Source: Naegleria gruberi
Lineage: Eukaryota
DNA: 64,000 nt
Assembly (NCBI GenBank): GCA_000004985.1
Contig: GG738899.1
Direction: 5' to 3' (one strand)
In this document: in pieces, positions 28,097 through 58,713 of the stretch
Position numbering within the stretch: the first letter of the stretch is position 1
Layout: every line of letters begins with the position of its first letter
Program-made: the position numbers and the translations under genes
Notes under the pieces: generated by a model
Seen by the model: the letters and a program-made list of their open reading frames with translations, nothing else
The model's database searches: none
Told to the model about the DNA's origin: nothing

Positions 28097-28455
28097 TTTG
28101 TTTGTTCTTTCACACCAGACTGTCTCGTTGAGCTATTTGAACTGTTTTGAATAAGTGTCAGCAAAAACAACATACATCCTCCCGCCCGTAGATCTTTAAA
28201 TGGAGGCGGGGTCTTTATTGAATTAGTGCGGCCAATAAGAACGTCCACAGTTCTGAGAACTATGCCTATTGGTATTTGTAACAATGTGCATTTCCTTTAT
28301 GAAGATGATGTTAATTTGTTTGAATGAGCAATCTTTAAAAAACCCACTCCAATTAATAATACAAAGCACTGCTCAAGAGTGTAGCATATCGATATGCTTC
28401 ACATGGTACTAACAGAATTGATCAAGTTGATATCTGGCATTTTATGATAATAGAT

Positions 28456-28574
28456 GGCTACGGCCATATCACGATGAATGCACCTCATCCCGTCCGATTT
28501 GAGAAGTTAAGCATCGTCGAGCCACATCAGTACTGAGGTTGGAGACAACTTGGGAACCTGTGGTGCTGTAGTCT
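28456..28574 (+). rRNA. 5S ribosomal RNA gene (119 nt)
   Basis: GGCTACGGCCATATCACGATGAATGCACCTCATCCCGTCCGATTTGAGAAGTTAAGCATCGTCGAGCCACATCAGTACTGAGGTTGGAGACAACTTGGGAACCTGTGGTGCTGTAGTCT. Conserved 5S blocks (CCGATC-like, AAGTTAAGC, GTACT, GGGAA) are present and the ends pair to form helix I. A TTTTT run follows at 28575-28579. Confidence 0.85.
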
Positions 28575-28579
28575 TTTTA
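28575..28579 (+). terminator. Pol III-type oligo(T) terminator after the 5S gene
   Basis: TTTTT immediately 3' of the 5S rRNA gene. Confidence 0.5.
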
Positions 28580-29188
28580 ATTTCGATTTAATTTATGTGT
28601 TGTTATCTTATTGTTTTTACAACTTTAAATATTGAAATGTAGAGATATTGAAAATGGAAATGTACAAATATGTGAAGAAAATTAAATACAAATCATTTGA
28701 CAATTTAAAGAACTTTATTGAAAAACTTGTAAAATTCAATCTTATCCAAATTGTTTGGGTTGTTGTTTACTATTAGGGAGACTCTTTTAACTGCTGTGGA
28801 TTCACATTACTGCAAATACTTGGTTACAATCAGGGATTACCTCACTCTACATTAATTATCAACCCTCTCGCCACTCTTTCTAGAACGATTTGATTGGACA
28901 AGAGGGCTCAATGAATCTATTAATATACTCGACTGAAGATTCATTGTAGTAGGTTTCTTTTTTTTTAATTGAACAAGAGACAATTTTCACATTCAAGCCA
29001 GCTCACTTTCTATTTATATTTTAGGAAATGCCACTTTCAACTTTTGAAGCAAACATTCATGAATGTAATTTTCATTTGATCAACAAGTTCATAGGAAGGA
29101 TCAATATCAGTTATATCTGTCTTTGTAAAAGAATAAGGAAGTATATTAATTGTACAATGTTCTATTTATTTTTATTTTTATAATGAAT

Positions 29189-29244
29189 GGCTACGGCCAT
29201 AGCAAGATGAAAGCACATCATCTCAATTAGGAACCTATCTTTTT
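29189..29244 (+). pseudogene. Truncated 5S rRNA-derived element: the first 40 nt or so of 5S, then unrelated sequence ending in a T-run.
   Basis: GGCTACGGCCATAGCAAGATGAAAGCACATCATCTCAATTAGGAACCTATCTTTTT. The 5' part matches the 5S 5' end with substitutions; the rest does not match 5S. Confidence 0.5.
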
Positions 29245-29854
29245 GCCTTATTGATTTTTCAACCTGGGTAAGTTGGCCTAGTTGTCCACTTCCATTTCAC
29301 AGATTATTATAGTATTTGTGCAAAGAATGAGGAAATTCTCCACTTTATTAGTTGTTTCTTACAACTTTCAGGAGGAAGTTCTTAAAAATTGTGAGCTGAT
29401 CTTGAAGCCATGATGGAAATTGCTCTTCCACCTCAATAATTAATCAAGTCAACATTCAATTATTTTCTTGAATCGAAATTTATATTTTTCACACATAAAA
29501 GTACCACAATTTTTTAACCTCACTTTTCACACATTCAAAACCAATATCATAAACCTCACAAATCAAACTTGATAAAGCCATTGACTGTACTTCTACAGGA
29601 TCTTTTCTGTAGGAATACATAAACTCGACTTTTTTGAGTCAATCTGACCTTTGAGGTTAACCAAGATGAAGACTCTGTAGTCACATATCTTGAGCATGAT
29701 ATCGAACTGGAAACATGCTTCGCTGTAGGTTTCCTCGTTCATAGATGATTGCTGCATTCCTTACCAGCCATGGTTTGTGAATGGGGGATTTGTGAACATG
29801 CAGATTGGTACCTTAATTTTTTTAATAATTAATAGAAACTTAAACAATTTCAAC

Positions 29855-29900
29855 GTCCTATGGCAGCATTTCAAGTTCTAGGAACCTATGTTTCTTTTGT
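29855..29900 (+). repeat. Degenerate second copy of the truncated-5S-derived element and its spacer.
   Basis: CCTATGGCAGCATTTCAAGTTCTAGGAACCTATGTTTCTTTTG and the following TTGCTTTGCACTTATCAACC align at about 75 percent with 29205-29270 (CAATTAGGAACCTATCTTTTTG ... TTGATTTTTCAACC). Confidence 0.35.
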
Positions 29901-30450
29901 TGCTTTGCACTTATCAACCAAGATCTATTTGGAACTTTCTTTGCATTAATAGGTACAAAGTGAAAGTCGCCTTAAAAAACTGACTAATAACATCATAAAA
30001 TTAGATTTAGAACAGACAATTACTGAAATTGTAAAACATTGAAAGTTTAATGATTGTTTGTAGGGTTGTATGCAACATTTCTTCTCCAGTATGAACGTTT
30101 CCTCTCAACCAAATATTTGGAGAATGAAACACAATGACCTTGTTTTACATGATGTTCAAAATCATTGTCACTAATTACTTCATAAACATTTTCTTTACAA
30201 ACAGCACAAAACGAAACTCCGTACGAAACCTCAATAAATTGTCTAAGGGAAATGAAAGAGTTCTTCACTATCTTGGCCAACAGATTGAAAAAACTCCCAA
30301 ACTTTAATTGAAACTTCCATTTCAGAGTTGGCTCTATTTTTAAAGAAAGAATTATACCATAATGAAATGAATGTTTTCAACAATCTGAAGCTAAGAGAGA
30401 TTGCAAACCAATACTGATTTTGAGGCATGTGTAATTCTAACATCACTATC

Positions 30451-30480
30451 AGCTCGTATTCTACCACTAAACCATCGACG
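30451..30480 (-). pseudogene. tRNA 5'-half remnant (acceptor plus D-arm only)
   Basis: The reverse complement reads GCGTCGATGGTTTAGTGGTAGAATACGAGC, a canonical tRNA 5' end with a GGTTTAGTGGTAGAAT D-arm. No anticodon stem or T-arm follows. Confidence 0.3.
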
Positions 30481-30738
30481 CTTCTTATTAGTCTATCAAA
30501 TATTATAATAATAGATAGTGTGATTTAATAAACTGTCATCAATGAAGTGTTGGTGGCGAAACTCCACCCATGCCTTTTTTACCTCCTGTTAAAATTACAT
30601 TAAGAATTTGAATGGAACATCATAAGTTTTATCTGGTTCAAAACCATCAATTTTCGAATGGTGTTTTAGTACTCACTCACAAATTAAACTATAACAAATT
30701 AAGAGATAGCTCATTATCTTAATTTTGATATTAACAAT

Positions 30739-30857
30739 GGCTACGGCCATATCACGATGAATGCACCTCATCCCGTCCGATTTGAGAAGGTAAGCATCGT
30801 CGAGCCACATCAGTACTGAGGTTGGAGACAACTTGGGAACCTGTGGTGCTGTAGTCT
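30739..30857 (+). rRNA. 5S ribosomal RNA gene (119 nt), second intact copy
   Basis: Identical to the copy at 28456-28574 except for one substitution (AAGGTAAGC versus AAGTTAAGC). Followed by TTTTT at 30858-30862. Confidence 0.85.
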
Positions 30858-30892
30858 TTTTAATTCAAAATATCAAAGTAAAATGAAATTTT

Positions 30893-31836
30893 TTATTTTA
30901 AATATAAATTGGATGTATTAAATAAACATTTACAATTTAATTCTAATTTATCAAATTTATATTGTTCAAGTACAGTGGTATCAAATTGTAATTCTTGTAA
31001 AATCAAACATTCAACAGTTAATTCATTTAAATTTAAAGGAATATTTAATTTTTTTAAATCATATTCAATAATTGTTAATTTTTTTAAATTACATAAATTA
31101 TTTAAATTAACTATTGTAGTTCCTAATTCTTCTAAATGTAATATTTCTAAATTAATCATATTATTTATAATATTAATTTCAGTTAAATAACATCCAGTTA
31201 AAGATAATTCAGTTAAATTTAATTTTGAAATTGCATTTAAAAAATTAAAATAATTTAATTGTTCTAATTCTGATTTAAATATTAAACTTTTTAAATTATT
31301 TAAATGAATAATACCTTCACCATTTAATTCTGTATCTGTAAATGATAATTTTGTTAATTTGGTTAAATATTTTAAATTAATTTCATTTTCAATTTCATTA
31401 CAATATAATTCTTTTAAATTATTTAATTTAGATAATAGAATAATATCCAATTCATTTAAATTAATTGATAAATGTAAAATTGATAAATTATTTAAATTAT
31501 TTAAATATGGTAATACTAAAATGTTTAAATAATAGAAGAAACCCTTAACATACCTTTTATATCACCTTTTAATTCATATATAGAATTAATGTAATTATTA
31601 TTTTCACAAAATTTAATAAAACTATTAATGTATTTAAATCTGCTATTATATTTGATATTAATAATTGATTTGTAATTTAATTTATTACAAATAATAACAT
31701 TCCATTCTTTTGATATTATTCTTAAATATTTACAACAATATTCAAAGGTAAAATATTTAAATAAATGTTCTATCAATATTTCCGATGGAATGTTCGGTGA
31801 GGAGGAATAATTAATCATATGAACTGAGGATGACAT
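30893..31836 (-). CDS. F-box / leucine-rich-repeat protein (about 301 aa), two exons join(complement 31554..31836, 30893..31515).
   Basis: N-terminal F-box-like IPSEILIEHLFKYFTFEYCCKYLRIISKEWNVII. The C-terminal part is made of LxxLxL leucine-rich repeats. A GTATGT donor and TTTTAG acceptor define a 38-nt intron; the exon lengths sum to 906 nt, which is in frame. The upstream extension of the second track ORF has no stops. Confidence 0.6.
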
Positions 31837-32073
31837 TTTTTTTAATAATGAAAAACAATTGATTGGAAATTCACATCAATTCCAGAATTACAGAAAAACC
31901 AGAAACATTTCGAACAAAAACCGAACACATGATGATTGTGGAATTACTTTATATGATTTCCCTCCCTTCTTCCTGTTAGATTGTTTAATTGTGTAGTGGA
32001 TAATCCAAAAAGTATCCAATGTGAAACAACACTATTCAGAATAGTTTTGATCAAAATTAATGTTTTATTTTAA

Positions 32074-33512: not shown

Positions 33513-33584
33513 TCCCGTGTAGTCCAATGGCTAGGATACCTGGCTTTCACCCAGGAGGTCCGGGTTCAATTCCCGGCATGGGAG
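33513..33584 (+). tRNA. tRNA-Glu (anticodon UUC), copy 1
   Basis: TCCCGTG-TA-GTCCAATGGCTAGGATAC-CTGGC TTTCACC CAGGA (anticodon loop CTTTCAC, anticodon TTC) -GGTCC-GGGTTCAATTCCCGG-CATGGGA-G. All stems pair. Followed by AATTTT. Confidence 0.85.
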
Positions 33585-33682: not shown

Positions 33683-35173
33683 ATGATCACACAACCAAAA
33701 CATTCCATCACTTCATTTTCGAAAATACAAGAAAATAGTCCATTCTCTGACGATTCACTCTTTGAAATTTTATCTTTTCACGATGATTTTAAATTTATTG
33801 TACAGAGTTGTGCATTGGTTTCCAAACAGTGGTTTCATGTCATTAAAAATTCATGTAAACACCTCTCGATAACACGTAATAGTGATTGGGAAATGGTTGG
33901 TCAATTGCCGTTTTTGGAAAATATTGCAAATCTAAGAGTGATAAATAATGAAGTTGGATTTAATTGTGAGATATTGGATTCGATGAAAGAATTGAAAAAA
34001 CTCAATTTAGAAAATAATTCTAATATTCATCCAAGTGGATTCAAGTATATATGTTCATTGGAACAATTGACTGATCTTTATATGACTTTCTGTTATTTTA
34101 GATTGCCTATTGCTAAACATTTACCATCGTTGAAATCACTAACTTATCTTCTTATTACGGGTAATTATATTGGTGTAGAAGGAGCCAAGTATATTGGTGA
34201 AATGAAGCAATTGAAACAACTTCATATTGCTAATAATAATATTGGCCCGGAAGGAGCCAAGCATATTAGTGGCCTTGAACAATTGACTATTCTTAATATC
34301 CGTGCCAATGAAATTACTGTGGATGGAGCAAAATTTATTAGTGAAATGAAACAGTTGACTGTCCTTAACATTATTGGCAACGATATTTGTGACGAAGGAG
34401 CTAAATTTATTAGTGGAATGAAACAATTAACTAATCTTGATATTTCTGTTAATAATATAGGCGAGAACGGTGCCAAGTATGTTAGTGAAATGTTGAATAT
34501 AACCAAACTCAATATTGGTTTTAATTCTATTAATGATTGTGTTGAGTGTTTTGGCAAAATGAAACAATTAACAGATCTTAATGTGAACAGTAGCTGTATT
34601 GGATTGTGTGGAATAGTTTTCATTTCGTCATTTAATCAATTAACTCATCTTTCTATAGCTAGTAATAGTATTTCAAATTACGAGGCAAGTCACATTAGCC
34701 AAATGAAAAATGTAATTAAGCTTGACATTTCTGATAATCGTATTGGGGATAACGGAGTCCAATCTATAAGTGAAATGAACCAATTAACTGAACTTAATGT
34801 TTCTAGTATTGATATTACACCAATAGGTATACAATATATCTGTAAAATGGATAATTTAACGTATCTAATAATTGCTCATAATAACATTGGAGTGAAAGGT
34901 GCAAACCAAATCAGTGAAATGAAGCACCTAGCACAGCTTTCTATCTATAACAACGCTGTTGGAGATGAGGGAGCCAAATTTATAAGTGAAATGGAACAAT
35001 TAACTTTTCTAAATATAGGTTCCAATGAAATTGGTGACGAAGGCGTTAAAGCCCTAAGTGGAATGAAGCAATTAACAGAACTTAACACAGTTGATAACAA
35101 TATAAGTGAAGAGGGTGAAAATTACATTCGAGAAATGAATTTGACAGATCATACAGGTATTTATGATGTTTAA
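33683..35173 (+). CDS. F-box-like / ribonuclease-inhibitor-type leucine-rich-repeat protein (496 aa)
   Basis: The N-terminus LFEILSFHDDFKFIVQSCALVSKQWFHVI is F-box-like. It is followed by about 14 repeats of 24 aa of the NNIG-EGAK-IS-MKQLT-LNI type, i.e. RNI-like LRRs. Confidence 0.7.
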   Translation: MITQPKHSITSFSKIQENSPFSDDSLFEILSFHDDFKFIVQSCALVSKQWFHVIKNSCKHLSITRNSDWEMVGQLPFLENIANLRVINNEVGFNCEILDSMKELKKLNLENNSNIHPSGFKYICSLEQLTDLYMTFCYFRLPIAKHLPSLKSLTYLLITGNYIGVEGAKYIGEMKQLKQLHIANNNIGPEGAKHISGLEQLTILNIRANEITVDGAKFISEMKQLTVLNIIGNDICDEGAKFISGMKQLTNLDISVNNIGENGAKYVSEMLNITKLNIGFNSINDCVECFGKMKQLTDLNVNSSCIGLCGIVFISSFNQLTHLSIASNSISNYEASHISQMKNVIKLDISDNRIGDNGVQSISEMNQLTELNVSSIDITPIGIQYICKMDNLTYLIIAHNNIGVKGANQISEMKHLAQLSIYNNAVGDEGAKFISEMEQLTFLNIGSNEIGDEGVKALSGMKQLTELNTVDNNISEEGENYIREMNLTDHTGIYDV

Positions 35174-37214: not shown

Positions 37215-37270
37215 AATAAATAGTATTTTCAATAACATAAAATATTAGTTGTTATTACTTGGGAAATGTT

Positions 37271-37296
37271 GCATTCATCGTGATATGGCAGTAGCC
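37271..37296 (-). pseudogene. Isolated 5S rRNA 5'-end fragment in reverse orientation.
   Basis: GCATTCATCGTGATATGGCAGTAGCC is the reverse complement of GGCTACTGCCATATCACGATGAATGC, i.e. 5S positions 1-26 with one mismatch; nothing 5S-like follows. Confidence 0.4.
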
Positions 37297-37833: not shown

Positions 37834-39951
37834 TTATTGTTTTGTTTCATGTGGTTTCAACCTTTCTATAAATGTTGAAGAGTTACTACTACTGTTATTA
37901 GTTAAATAGAGCCATTCTTTAGCCCTTGTAATTGCAACATAGAATATTCTATCCTCTTCTCCTTCATGGACAATTTGTTGCTTTTTCAGTTGTATTGGAT
38001 CTGATTTCTTGATAAGTGGCATGACACCATCTTGCACTTCTGGTACAAAAACATGTTTCCATTCTCTCCCTTTTGCTCTGTGGACAGTGCATATGTGAAT
38101 TCCCTTTCCATCTGATGAGTTATTATATGTTTCATCATTAAATGAAATAAGAGAATCAATCAGATCAGAAGTAACTAATTCATCATTTAAGCCCAATCCA
38201 TCAATTATTAGAGGATCGTCCCAATTGAATTTCTTTTGAATTGTTTCAGCAAGTTTTAAAAAAGTTGTGTTTGCTAAACCTGCTGCCAATTCGTTAATGA
38301 CTGTAAAGAAACGGATGAATTTCTCTAATTTGTCTTTCTTAGGTGCTTTTCCTTTTGTAGGTACTTTCGTACTAGGAGTTTCCTGATCCTTTAAATATTG
38401 TAAATATTTTTCAAATGATTTCTCTCCAATCCCTTTAAAATAGATGAAATGCTTAATAATCCATTTCATTGATTTTGTAAATTTTTCATCCTTGATTTCC
38501 ACACCATCACATATCAACTTCATCAGATTCAACATTACTCGGGTATCATCCTTGGCATTCTTTGAGATTGGAATCTTTTTGTTCTTGAGTATACTTTCCA
38601 ATTCGCTGGTATTAGTACTTCTTCTCATTAGTATGGCAATATCATTATAAGATACTCCCTTATTATTCAATATTTGAATTTGATTTGCAATATATTGAAA
38701 TTCTCCATCACGAGTACTAAAATTGTTTAAAGTGATAGCATCTTGGGAATCGGTTTCTATTGAATTTTCTGTTGATGTTTTCATAAATCGATTAGATGCT
38801 AACACAATTGACTTCATGCTTCTATAGTTTCTTCTGAGCTTTAATATTGTTGCAGATGGGAAATCTTCCATAATTTTGTCAAATATCTTTTCTTGAGCGC
38901 CTAAGAATGAATAGATTGCTTGATGTGGATCTCCAAATACTGAAAATCTCGTTTTCTCTCCAATAATCATTTTCATAAATTTATACTGAACTGTGGATGT
39001 ATCTTGAAACTCATCAATTAAAACATCTGAGTAATGTTGTTGATAAAAATCTCTTGAACCTTGATGATTACTCGTTAATATATAGCAAGCTTCTCTCATA
39101 AGTGAAGATAAAGTAAGCATGCTCTTGGCTATTTCTTCATATATAGTCAAGGCAGCTTTGTAATCTGAAGTTGCAAACTCATTAGCAGAGACTTCTCTTG
39201 CGTATTCATCTTGTGCCCAATCAACATATTTCTCAACAGTCTCTGTAAGTGTAACATTTTTCTTTTCTAATTGCTCTTTCATCTCCTTAATAATCGATTC
39301 TTTTGTTGAAATATATGTTTTTCCTTTAGCTCCGTATTTTCTGCAAATTGACAAGGCAAACGCATGGATAGTTTTTACATCATATCTCTTTTCCACTCCA
39401 TATTTTTGTAATCTTTCTTGAATTTCCCTAGTTGCATCTCTAGAAAATGTTACAAGCAAAAGACAAGCATTAGGATTAGTTTCAATAATCTTCTTGGCCC
39501 TAAATGTCAACACAAGTGTTTTACCACCACCTGGTGGTGCCTGTACAACAAGATATTTGGCAGAATCATTTTCAATAACACCAAGTTGATCGGCATCGAA
39601 CTTTGGCACCTCTACAACAGGTACAATTGCGTTACAGTCAATTGTTGCCTTCTTTTTCTTCTTTTGAAAAAATGGATGCAAAGGAAGGGATGAAGTAGGT
39701 GTTTCTATTATTGATGAAGGTGACACTTCTATTTGGCTCTGAGTATCATCGGGATTCTGTTCTTGCTCCTGGCTCGGAGAGGATGAAGTGGAATTTTCTT
39801 TACTTTTAAGTGGTTTGAAAAATTCAACCACGGTTTTTTGTTTTTTACTATCTGGAATTGTACTATTGGAAAGTGATTTGGATTTTCTCTTTAGAGAATT
39901 ATTTCCTGATGATTTTGATGAAGAAGGCAAGCTTTTTCTTCCCGAAGTCAT
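37834..39951 (-). CDS. UvrD/PcrA/Srs2-like superfamily-1 DNA helicase (about 705 aa) with a Ser/Lys-rich N-terminus.
   Basis: SF1 motifs: Walker A APPGGGKT, motif II VLIDEFQDTS, motif III GDPHQAIYSF, motif VI CTVHRAKGREWKHVFV. The track ORF starts at a GTG; the first ATG is at 39949-39951. TAA stop. Confidence 0.8.
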   Translation of the reverse strand: MTSGRKSLPSSSKSSGNNSLKRKSKSLSNSTIPDSKKQKTVVEFFKPLKSKENSTSSSPSQEQEQNPDDTQSQIEVSPSSIIETPTSSLPLHPFFQKKKKKATIDCNAIVPVVEVPKFDADQLGVIENDSAKYLVVQAPPGGGKTLVLTFRAKKIIETNPNACLLLVTFSRDATREIQERLQKYGVEKRYDVKTIHAFALSICRKYGAKGKTYISTKESIIKEMKEQLEKKNVTLTETVEKYVDWAQDEYAREVSANEFATSDYKAALTIYEEIAKSMLTLSSLMREACYILTSNHQGSRDFYQQHYSDVLIDEFQDTSTVQYKFMKMIIGEKTRFSVFGDPHQAIYSFLGAQEKIFDKIMEDFPSATILKLRRNYRSMKSIVLASNRFMKTSTENSIETDSQDAITLNNFSTRDGEFQYIANQIQILNNKGVSYNDIAILMRRSTNTSELESILKNKKIPISKNAKDDTRVMLNLMKLICDGVEIKDEKFTKSMKWIIKHFIYFKGIGEKSFEKYLQYLKDQETPSTKVPTKGKAPKKDKLEKFIRFFTVINELAAGLANTTFLKLAETIQKKFNWDDPLIIDGLGLNDELVTSDLIDSLISFNDETYNNSSDGKGIHICTVHRAKGREWKHVFVPEVQDGVMPLIKKSDPIQLKKQQIVHEGEEDRIFYVAITRAKEWLYLTNNSSSNSSTFIERLKPHETKQ

Positions 39952-40196
39952 CACGAATTTTTTTTGATTTATTTTTAATTACCTTAAACGTGATGATTGA
40001 CCATATGCAAAGGTTATTGAAATCAAGTTAATTGGATAAGCACATATTGCTCATATTAAAAGTAAATGATCATTATTTTGTAAACACCAAAAGTTGTAAA
40101 GTCAAATAGAACCCTTTTAGATCATGATGAACATTCTATCATTGATGTGGGTTGATTAGATCACCCGATGACAACTTTTTAAATAATCAAAAAAAA

Positions 40197-42435: not shown

Positions 42436-42508
42436 GCCCCGCTAGCTCAGTCGGTAGAGCGTTGGACTTTAAATCCAACGGTCGTGGGTTCGAGCCCCAC
42501 GTGGGGCG
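42436..42508 (+). tRNA. tRNA with anticodon UUA on a tRNA-Lys-like body; it would decode the UAA stop codon (ochre-suppressor-like).
   Basis: GCCCCGC-TA-GCTCAGTCGGTAGAGC-G-TTGGA CTTTAAA TCCAA-CGGTC-GTGGGTTCGAGCCCCAC-GTGGGGC-G. The anticodon stem is 5 bp and perfect, which fixes the loop as C-U-U-U-A-A-A: U33, anticodon 34-36 = UUA (42469-42471), A37. The D- and T-arms match the tRNA-Asn here and eukaryotic tRNA-Lys(UUU). One T to A change at position 36 relative to Lys-UUU would produce this anticodon. A TTTTTTT run follows. Confidence 0.7.
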
Positions 42509-58641: not shown

Positions 58642-58713
58642 TCCCGTGTAGTCCAATGGCTAGGATACCTGGCTTTCACCCAGGAGGTCCGGGTTCAATT
58701 ACCGGCATGGGAG
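58642..58713 (+). tRNA. tRNA-Glu (anticodon UUC), copy 2, with a T-stem mismatch.
   Basis: Identical to copy 1 except a C to A change (CAATTACCGG versus CAATTCCCGG) that creates a G-A mismatch in the T-stem. About 45 bp of upstream flank (TGTATTGTTGCTATAAAGAAGTT.TTTTCAT.ATGAA.AACATCCCG) and the downstream GGATAATTTTAA are also conserved with copy 1. Confidence 0.75.

Follow-up and report, generated by a model that had tools for sequence, protein, structure and literature searches.

The locus analyzed here raises the question of whether short 5S-like sequences near a pair of intact 5S rRNA genes in Naegleria gruberi are small transcribable elements or relics of 5S genes. A preliminary description placed two such sequences, E1 and E2, between the intact genes and interpreted them as transcribable 5S-SINE-like or chimeric RNA polymerase III (Pol III) units. 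All coordinates given below are positions in the window, that is, in the whole 64-kb stretch of DNA that was analyzed.

Two intact 5S rRNA genes in a dispersed family

The claim that the locus contains an intact 5S pair holds to the nucleotide: copy 1 (28456..28574, plus strand) and copy 2 (30739..30857, plus strand) give full-length matches to Rfam RF00001 (model 1-120), with 105.4 and 102.1 bits, respectively, for a gathering score of 38. The two copies were also said to differ by one base, and they do so at position 52 alone, which is T in copy 1 (the consensus sequence) and G in copy 2. The T52G substitution, which lies inside box A, breaks a model base pair, and position 52 is T in 10/10 other Naegleria-type 5S sequences examined; two environmental contigs, L008 and L007, carry a 5S identical to copy 1. 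The box A segment, AGTTAAGCATCGTCG, agrees with the consensus quoted in PMC3369914, and the box C segment, GAGGTTGGAGACAACTTG, fits the consensus at 10/12 specified positions. A T5 run lies directly 3' of both genes (in copy 1, the T-run at 28574-28578 is followed by AATT). Both copies therefore show the full-length model match, the internal control region and the T-run terminator of a 5S rRNA gene.

In Naegleria, the 18S, 5.8S and 28S rRNA genes are located on an extrachromosomal plasmid; the 5S genes are therefore scattered singly, or by two or three, among protein-coding genes. Table S1 of PMC3369914 (2012) lists 279 N. gruberi 5S hits on 117 scaffolds, 15 of them partial (80-106 nt), and already includes the pair in the window (scaffold_55, 252459 and 254742, gap 2283). 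A neighbor within 6 kb or less is present for 72 of the 279 hits in that table, with 38 gaps of less than 6 kb. The earlier view of the locus as a dispersed mini-cluster and not a tandem array agrees with these numbers. We conclude that small dispersed clusters among protein-coding genes are the usual 5S arrangement in N. gruberi, and that both 5S genes in the window belong, as ordinary members, to a dispersed family with ~280 copies.

The protein-coding surroundings noted previously are equally clear. The cluster is bracketed on one side by EFC39541 (27587..28096, minus strand), a microsomal glutathione S-transferase (MGST, MAPEG; PF01124; exact N. gruberi protein match), and on the other side by EFC39542 (32074..33315, minus strand), a predicted protein for which a homologue search found none. 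MGST has an 88% identical N. gruberi paralogue on another scaffold, of 397 kb, and a homologue of 66% identity on an ENA contig that, at 1.3 kb, is not long enough to include the 5S side. A protein-coding spacer was ruled out by an ORF scan, which found no ORF of at least 80 aa between 28285 and 30892, and by a Pfam search, in which the minus-strand spacer ORFs of 74 and 77 aa gave no significant match.

The same pattern of dispersal is seen in nine environmental Naegleria-type 5S genes, which occur one per contig, amid ORFs, with unrelated flanks; the ~38 kb of contigs around these nine genes contained no extra 5S fragments. Peptide translations of the 5S gene, used as queries against a protein database, returned 11 spurious ORFs, and the eight contigs fetched, all Naegleria-type, each carried one intact 5S gene, with no U3 gene and no 5S fragment. 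A pattern scan with GGCTACNGCCATANCANGATGAANGCA returned one full 5S gene from JGI metagenomes (L002) and no matches in GTDB genomes or IMG/VR.

A U3 snoRNA gene between the 5S genes

The 5S spacer contains a U3 small nucleolar RNA (snoRNA) gene that the preliminary description had overlooked. The gene (29581..29809, plus strand, co-oriented with the 5S genes) matches RF00012 over model positions 1-219 with 76.1 bits (gathering score 34) and has the characteristic elements CAGGAUC..UUUUCUGUAG, GAUGA (box C'), UGAGCAUGA (box B) and AGAUGAU (box C); its box D is CAGA, not CUGA. Full-length model and boxes together identify it as a U3 snoRNA gene. Further Rfam families gave only sub-threshold noise in the spacer, and within the 64-kb window no repeats of the spacer were found besides the 5S genes themselves.

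A T7 run lies 3' of the U3 gene, at 29817-29823, and every gene of Pol III type in the window (5S, tRNA and U3) has T4-T7 within ~10 nt downstream. U3 is transcribed by Pol III in trypanosomatids, other protists and plants (PMC2784804), and by analogy with other Discoba the Naegleria U3 gene is probably transcribed by Pol III as well. Small-RNA gene linkage is known in Discoba from the SL RNA-5S repeats and the U3-U5 linkage of Euglena and from trypanosomatid U3 with its companion tRNA gene (PMC2784804). The Naegleria locus resembles these cases in having Pol III-type genes co-oriented within a few kb and a U3 gene with its own T-run terminator. Unlike the Euglena and trypanosomatid cases, the Naegleria U3 gene is linked with 5S genes that lie 1.0 and 0.9 kb away, and not in a short tandem unit; and, unlike in trypanosomatids, there is no companion tRNA gene upstream of it, and A-box-like matches occur there at the background rate, which led us to reject a trypanosomatid-style arrangement with a companion tRNA or A/B boxes. 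At this locus, the nuclear genome of N. gruberi carries small RNA genes clustered in one orientation and ordered 5S, E1 relic, U3 snoRNA, 5S.

E1 and E3 are derived from 5S rRNA genes

E1 (29189..29244, plus strand) begins GGCTACGGCCATAGCAAG and matches 5S from about -9 to +34/36. Its local alignment with 5S scores 56, compared with 15.4 +/- 2.3 for shuffled sequences, and 0/2000 shuffles score as well. The reported 5S-like start of E1 is borne out by this score, and its reported T-run end by a T5 run at 29240-29244. E1 consists of 5S positions 1-36 with 5 substitutions, then CAATTAGGAACCT, which resembles 5S positions 90-104, and then T5. Compared with 5S positions 36-119, the E1 tail shows a weak collinear match to 90-104 (p ~0.01, relative to shuffles and to random genomic 16-mers), and E1 therefore looks internally deleted. 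Retaining only 5S positions 1-36, it lacks box A, the intermediate element (IE) and most of box C. We conclude that E1 is truly 5S-derived. It probably represents an old copy that has lost about 5S positions 37-89 and 105-116, the internal promoter having gone with them.

A third 5S 5' fragment, E3, was overlooked in the preliminary description. E3 (37260..37296, minus strand, starting at 37296) lies 6.4 kb beyond the second 5S gene. Positions 37296-37270 are identical to 5S positions 1-27 at 26/27 nucleotides, weaker similarity extends to about +37, and the score against 5S is 52, compared with 15.3 +/- 2.2 for shuffles. The 5S-like proximal upstream sequence is retained, and the tail resembles neither that of E1 nor 5S. 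We conclude that E3, too, is 5S-derived. At position 24, E1 has A, as do the environmental sequences L002, L003, L005, L006, L009 and L010, whereas E3 has the modern T of the present N. gruberi 5S; the difference is consistent with relics of different ages. E3 probably represents a younger copy, truncated past about +28 to +37.

Each of E1 and E3 has a 5S head that starts exactly at +1 and is joined to unrelated sequence, as expected if the two were chimeric retro-copies formed when a reverse transcriptase switched templates from another RNA to 5S rRNA; chimeric retrogenes of mammals involving U6 or 5S have reportedly been described by Buzdin et al. However, the similarity to 5S genes reaches into the untranscribed flank, at least ~9 nt upstream of +1, which argues that E1 and E3 are DNA-level copies; moreover, there is neither a poly(A) tail nor a target-site duplication, and the E1 tail resembles the 5S 3' part. 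We regard an origin by template switching as highly improbable. A mobile element inserted into 5S at ~+37 was likewise rejected: a 5S 3' part is found nowhere else in the window, and beyond the breakpoints the sequences differ.

E2 and the spacing of 5S pairs

E2 (approximately 29855..29900, plus strand) sits 45 nt downstream of the U3 gene and, contrary to what had been claimed, does not start like 5S: aligned with 5S, it scores 16, compared with 15.6 +/- 2.3 for shuffles, and 942/2000 shuffles score equally well or better. We therefore dismissed E2 as a 5S derivative. The further claim that E1 and E2 share a downstream motif is correct as regards the motif itself, an exact 11-mer, TAGGAACCTAT, with four G/C bases, which occurs at 29228 (E1) and 29879 (E2); it is not confirmed as regards kinship. 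No other non-self alignment in the window reaches the E1-E2 score of 27, but the runners-up, at 26, 25 and 24, come from unrelated segments, and with alternative scoring E2 is level with or below such unrelated segments in likeness to E1. Around TAGGAACCTAT, the flanks of E1 and E2 are loosely similar. The results show that the E1-E2 similarity is at chance level, barely above random matches, and that neither 5S origin nor kinship with E1 is demonstrable for E2, which is probably just the 3' flank of the U3 gene.

The spacing of 5S pairs bears on a different origin for E1 and E2. Among the close pairs in Table S1 of PMC3369914, 10/38 gaps fall within 2163-2482 nt (P ~0.004 to 0.02), and one gap, on scaffold_42 (93019/95304), is 2285, compared with 2283 here. 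Further close pairs in the table are on scaffold_85 (53800/56154), scaffold_81 (50274/52665), scaffold_7 (543593/545993) and scaffold_41 (297689/300171). This bunching of gaps at 2.16-2.48 kb implies that the unit may be repeated, with E1 or E2 perhaps as conserved parts. On that account, the 2.3-kb unit (5S, E1, U3, E2, 5S) would be a segment that recurs several times in the genome, E1 and E2 would be multi-copy by unit duplication, and E2 would possibly be a more decayed duplicate of the E1 type. The 88% identical paralogue of the neighboring MGST gene and the first rank of the E1-E2 alignment in the window are in line with this account, but that alignment is just one point above unrelated windows and, 5S genes aside, the spacer is unrepeated in the window. 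We consider a repeated unit unlikely.

Relics or transcribable elements

The promoter boxes of a 5S gene (A, IE and C) span about +50 to +97. The similarity to 5S stops at ~+36 in E1 and at ~+28 to +37 in E3; neither therefore has a 5S head with an internal promoter, as a 5S-derived SINE does, and E2 has no 5S head. Other properties of SINEs are likewise absent. No direct repeat of at least 7 nt was found around E1, and only an A/T-only 9-mer around E3, leaving no indication of target-site duplications. No A-rich, simple-repeat or LINE-like tail was found, the tails of E1 and E3 finishing in T-runs. Between the E1 and E3 tails there is no relationship (score 15, compared with 13.6 +/- 2.1), and a common body for the two was dismissed on this basis. 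E1, E2 and E3 fold no better than shuffled sequence (z = -1.6 for E1). E1 and E3 have the features of truncated pseudogenes: they match only part of 5S and lack the 3' strand of helix I, helices II-V and the internal control region. A covariance search with RF00001 leaves both undetected even at E <= 5.

Known 5S SINEs keep boxes A, IE and C and have a shared body, a LINE-related or A-rich tail, target-site duplications and many copies. E1 and E3 resemble SINE3 of zebrafish, the 5S SINEs of some mammals and the plant Cassandra TRIMs in starting with the 5S 5' end; unlike those elements, they were not found to have promoter boxes, a shared body, the tail type or target-site duplications, nor, in the window and the ~38 kb of related contigs, multiple copies. 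The proposal of transcribable 5S-SINE-like or chimeric Pol III units thus fails on E2, which is not 5S, on the loss of the promoter boxes, on the unrelated tails and on the absence of target-site duplications, and the SINE-like reading is unsupported by the sequences analyzed here. We infer, with the lack of fold stability as indirect evidence, that E1 and E3 would not be expressed. The interpretation that we consider likely is that of an ordinary, dispersed family of 5S genes, accompanied by pseudogene relics and by a linked U3 gene.

Some observations run counter to a reading of the fragments as relics. E1 and E3 both retain TTTT..ATAA.. at -16 to -1, in both similarity is lost at +28 to +37, and in both a T4-T5 run follows at +52 to +61, a regularity that random decay does not need. 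In addition, the 11-mer TAGGAACCTAT is unique, within the 64 kb, to the E1 and E2 sites. No recognisable TFIIIA was found in N. gruberi (PMC3369914), which makes an upstream-driven 5S promoter conceivable. E1, E3 and perhaps E2 could then be short 5S-headed Pol III units, SINE-like or chimeric, driven from upstream and ending at the T-run; the intact-gene pattern at -16 to -1, the T4-T5 runs and the similar endpoints of 5S similarity in E1 and E3 are what such units would show. Set against this are the missing internal promoter region (+50 to +97), the unrelated non-5S bodies of E1 and E3, the lack of a 5S head in E2, the lack of target-site duplications, of an A-tail or LINE-like tail and of a stable structure, the frequency of T4-T5 runs in DNA of 67% A+T, and the absence of any such fragment in the ~38 kb that surround nine further 5S genes of Naegleria type. 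We judge such units to be improbable here. In a broader proposition, fragments of the E1/E3 type, with ~30-36 nt of the 5S 5' end, the proximal upstream motif and a T-tract, would be genome-wide upstream-promoter Pol III units producing ~55-60 nt RNAs, since 5S transcription in this lineage may require neither TFIIIA nor the internal control region; in a related version, genes for ribosome biogenesis would form a conserved unit, the 2.3-kb 5S-E1-U3-E2-5S block, in repeated copies. Both appear very unlikely.

Proposed turnover of a dispersed 5S family

According to the interpretation of E1 and E3 as pseudogene relics, the 5S family would turn over through local duplication and decay, and its history would be one of birth-and-death evolution. 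The 5S pair itself is already published; what is added here is an unannotated U3 gene between the two genes and two short 5S relics, which illustrate the turnover of a dispersed 5S family in a heterolobosean. The significance goes little beyond annotation; if, however, 5' fragments were present in large numbers and transcribed, they would be informative about how Pol III promoters operate in a lineage in which no TFIIIA has been found.

The closest parallel is with filamentous fungi. In Aspergillus, there are 5S pseudogenes that correspond to the 5' half of the gene. Truncated pseudogenes make up 18-83% of dispersed fungal 5S families according to the statement in PMC5555474 that cites Rooney and Ward (2005). 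As in the families of filamentous fungi, the Naegleria 5S genes lie amid protein-coding genes with flanks unrelated between copies, and some copies are truncated, with the 5' part retained and the structure-forming 3' part gone. Unlike the fungi, Naegleria is a heterolobosean amoeba with plasmid-borne large rRNA genes, its fragments are very short (27-36 nt of 5S), and one of them lies within a 5S-U3-5S cluster.

Two intact 5S rRNA genes from a dispersed family

The window contains two full-length 5S rRNA genes on the + strand, copy 1 at 28456-28574 (105.4 bits with the Rfam covariance model) and copy 2 at 30739-30857 (102.1 bits), that differ, as the preliminary description had it, by one base: where copy 1 has T at position 52, copy 2 has G. 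G52 of copy 2 lies within the box A segment, with loss of a model base pair, and position 52 is T in 10 of 10 other Naegleria-type 5S sequences collected, which identifies copy 1 as the consensus gene and copy 2 as slightly aberrant. Similarity between the flanks of the two copies is confined to ~16 nt upstream and 8-9 nt downstream (TTTTTAATT); beyond those limits the flanks show no relatedness. The 5S genes of the locus are already known: among 279 N. gruberi 5S hits on 117 scaffolds, the published list places a pair on scaffold_55 at 252459/254742, with a gap of 2283 nt, which is the pair in the window (Table S1, PMC3369914). The claim that the arrangement is dispersed, and not a tandem array, holds. 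The same list contains 38 neighbour gaps of <6 kb, 72 genes with a neighbour within 6 kb, and 15 partial hits of 80-106 nt. N. gruberi 5S has an internal control region and a TATA-like box, and a TFIIIA homologue was not found (PMC3369914). Because the extrachromosomal plasmid that carries the Naegleria 18S, 5.8S, and 28S genes has no 5S gene (PMC12482156), the 5S genes are the only chromosomal rRNA genes. The window is gene-dense, with 31-36% G+C and the standard genetic code, and three of its intron-less ORFs match EFC39540, EFC39541, and EFC39542 (N. gruberi, 331,038-nt scaffold) exactly.

Ten of the 38 gaps of <6 kb in Table S1 (PMC3369914) fall at 2163-2482 nt, a pile-up for which P is about 0.004 if the null is uniform and 0.02 if it is smoothed; the scaffold_42 pair is 2285 nt apart, vs. 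2283 nt in the window. The microsomal glutathione S-transferase gene beside the cluster (EFC39541) is matched by an 88% paralogue on another scaffold, of 397 kb. Together, the pile-up and the paralogue suggest that the 2.3-kb 5S-to-5S unit may be repeated and that the locus may have segmental duplicates.

Naegleria-type 5S genes in environmental contigs

A degenerate 27-mer that fits 5S and the two 5S-like fragments described below (E1 and E3) was scanned in JGI metagenomes, GTDB, and IMG/VR; its only match was the full 5S gene of one JGI metagenome contig, and the other two collections gave none. Peptides translated from 5S, searched against a protein database, matched spurious ORFs, and the eight of their ENA contigs that we examined carry one intact Naegleria-type 5S gene apiece: two identical to N. 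gruberi 5S, one at 96%, and five that are identical copies from another species. The environmental 5S genes all sit among ORFs, their flanks are unrelated, and the ~38 kb of environmental contigs yielded no U3 gene and no further 5S fragment. The occurrence of single 5S genes among ORFs on these contigs indicates that dispersed single 5S genes are a lineage trait. The five identical copies (L003, L005, L006, L009, and L010; one metagenome, ENA sample ERZ27315067) are 91.7% identical to N. gruberi 5S and show compensatory helix changes (GGCTAC/GTAGTC to GATTAC/GTAATC, CCACA/TGTGG to CTGCA/TGCAG, and GATG/CATC to GGTG/CACC). Judged by sequence, these contigs represent a second Naegleria-like species, also with the dispersed arrangement. 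Several of them break off within the 5S gene or at its edge, which a repeat would be expected to cause.

Truncated 5S copies near the pair

The preliminary description proposed two elements between the 5S genes, E1 (29189-29244) and E2 (about 29855-29900), each beginning like 5S. For E1 this is borne out: local alignment with 5S extends from about -9 to +34/36 with a score of 56 (shuffles, 15.4 +/- 2.3), and E1 is genuinely of 5S origin. Past +36, E1 continues with CAATTAGGAACCTATC and then T5. The 16-mer after +36 resembles 5S positions 90-104 (CAACTTGGGAACCT) better than do 99% of shuffled or random genomic 16-mers, and is collinear with them, so E1 is most simply described as a 5S copy from which two internal segments, at about 37-89 and 105-116, have been deleted. 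The deletions take out box A, the intermediate element, and most of box C. Of the first 36 positions of E1, 5 differ from present 5S; one of the five, A24, is the state in the environmental relatives (L002 and L003-type sequences), which points to E1 being an old copy. Another piece of the 5S 5' end, E3 (37296-37270, - strand), lies 6.4 kb beyond copy 2, is identical to 5S at 26 of 27 positions, has weaker similarity on to about +37, and keeps 5S-like upstream sequence. The tail of E3 is unrelated to that of E1 (score 15 vs. 13.6 +/- 2.1) and to the remainder of 5S.

5S-derived SINEs (SINE3 and related) combine the 5S internal promoter with a common body, a LINE-related or A-rich tail, target-site duplications, and many copies. 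The proposal that such elements lie here is unsupported for E1 and E3: whereas 5S SINEs keep the internal promoter, the 5S part of E1 and E3 ends at least 14 nt before box A; their bodies differ from one another; they end in T-runs, not A-runs; and neither is bordered by target-site duplications. In folding, the putative transcripts of the three elements do not outdo shuffled sequence (z = -1.6, -0.3, and -0.1).

A U3 gene and its flank

Between E1 and E2 lies a U3 small nucleolar RNA gene, overlooked in the preliminary description, at 29581-29809 (+; Rfam 76.1 bits, gathering score 34, full model). It is detectable by a standard Rfam scan and has the 5' box A region and boxes C', B, and C, with box D as CAGA in place of CUGA. 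Downstream is a T7 (29817-29823), and, like U3, five tRNA and two 5S genes in the window have T4-T7 within ~10 nt downstream. Since U3 is reportedly transcribed by Pol III in trypanosomatids, other protists, and plants (PMC2784804), this likeness makes Pol III transcription of this U3 gene a reasonable inference. No companion tRNA and no A/B boxes were found upstream. The octamer AACCTCAC occurs there twice (29516-29523 and 29552-29559, +; ~-65 and -29 from the start) and could be a promoter element.

E2 was rejected as a 5S-headed element, its similarity to 5S being at shuffle level (16 vs. 15.6). Its supposed relationship to E1 is unproven: the two have in common an exact 11-mer, TAGGAACCTAT, found in the window at those two sites only, but when E1 or its tail was scanned against every position range of the window on both strands, E2 was the best match by one point (27 vs. 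26, 25, and 24); with the scoring changed, it ranked level with, or below, unrelated stretches. E2 begins 45 nt past the 3' end of U3, and so is just U3 3' flank.

Origin of the locus

We consider it probable that this is an ordinary locus of the dispersed 5S family, shaped by local duplication and then decay, that happens to contain a U3 gene; E1 and E3 would be 5S relics differing in age, and E2 the U3 flank. 5S pseudogenes of the truncated sort are already familiar. For fungi whose 5S genes are dispersed, PMC5555474, citing Rooney and Ward 2005, gives pseudogenes as 18-83% of the copies, a good many of them truncated. Three things leave this explanation short of certain: E1 and E3 both keep proximal upstream TTTT..ATAA.., break at similar points, and have T-runs at +52 to +61; TFIIIA is reported absent in N. 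gruberi; and the pile-up of published 5S gaps at 2.16-2.48 kb, with the paralogue of the neighbouring transferase gene elsewhere in the genome, hints that the 2.3-kb unit may be repeated.

Other features of the window

Immediately beyond copy 2, where the sequence is very A+T-rich (G+C of 24.5% over 30001-32000), are two unannotated ORFs of 185 and 103 aa (30893-31836, -), the former leucine-rich-repeat-like with a weak LRR_4 match. They look like the F-box/LRR gene at 33683-35173 and may be a decayed or unannotated member of that family. A sub-threshold Rfam match at 37889-37976 (-) to n00280, a Clostridioides sRNA "included into helicase gene" (35.5 bits vs. a gathering score of 65.2), lies inside a UvrD-like helicase ORF (37834-39954) and is most likely conserved helicase coding sequence, not RNA.

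The top-scoring tRNA in the window (42436-42508, +; 70.8 bits, then T7) looks intact, and with its UUA anticodon it would read UAA stops. The body is like tRNA-Lys(UUU), with anticodon loop CTTTAAA vs. CTTTTAA. Because TAA is the stop of 15 of the 20 long ORFs in the window, this is no change of genetic code; the gene may encode an ochre suppressor or be a mutated Lys tRNA gene. Two tRNA-Glu(UUC) genes 25 kb apart (33513-33584 and 58642-58713, both +) have nearly identical flanks, comprising ~40 nt upstream (TATTGTTGCTATAAAGAAGTT.TTTTCAT.ATGAA.AACA) and GATAATTTTAA downstream, which indicates that tRNA genes of the window, unlike the 5S copies, spread as DNA segments including flanks.
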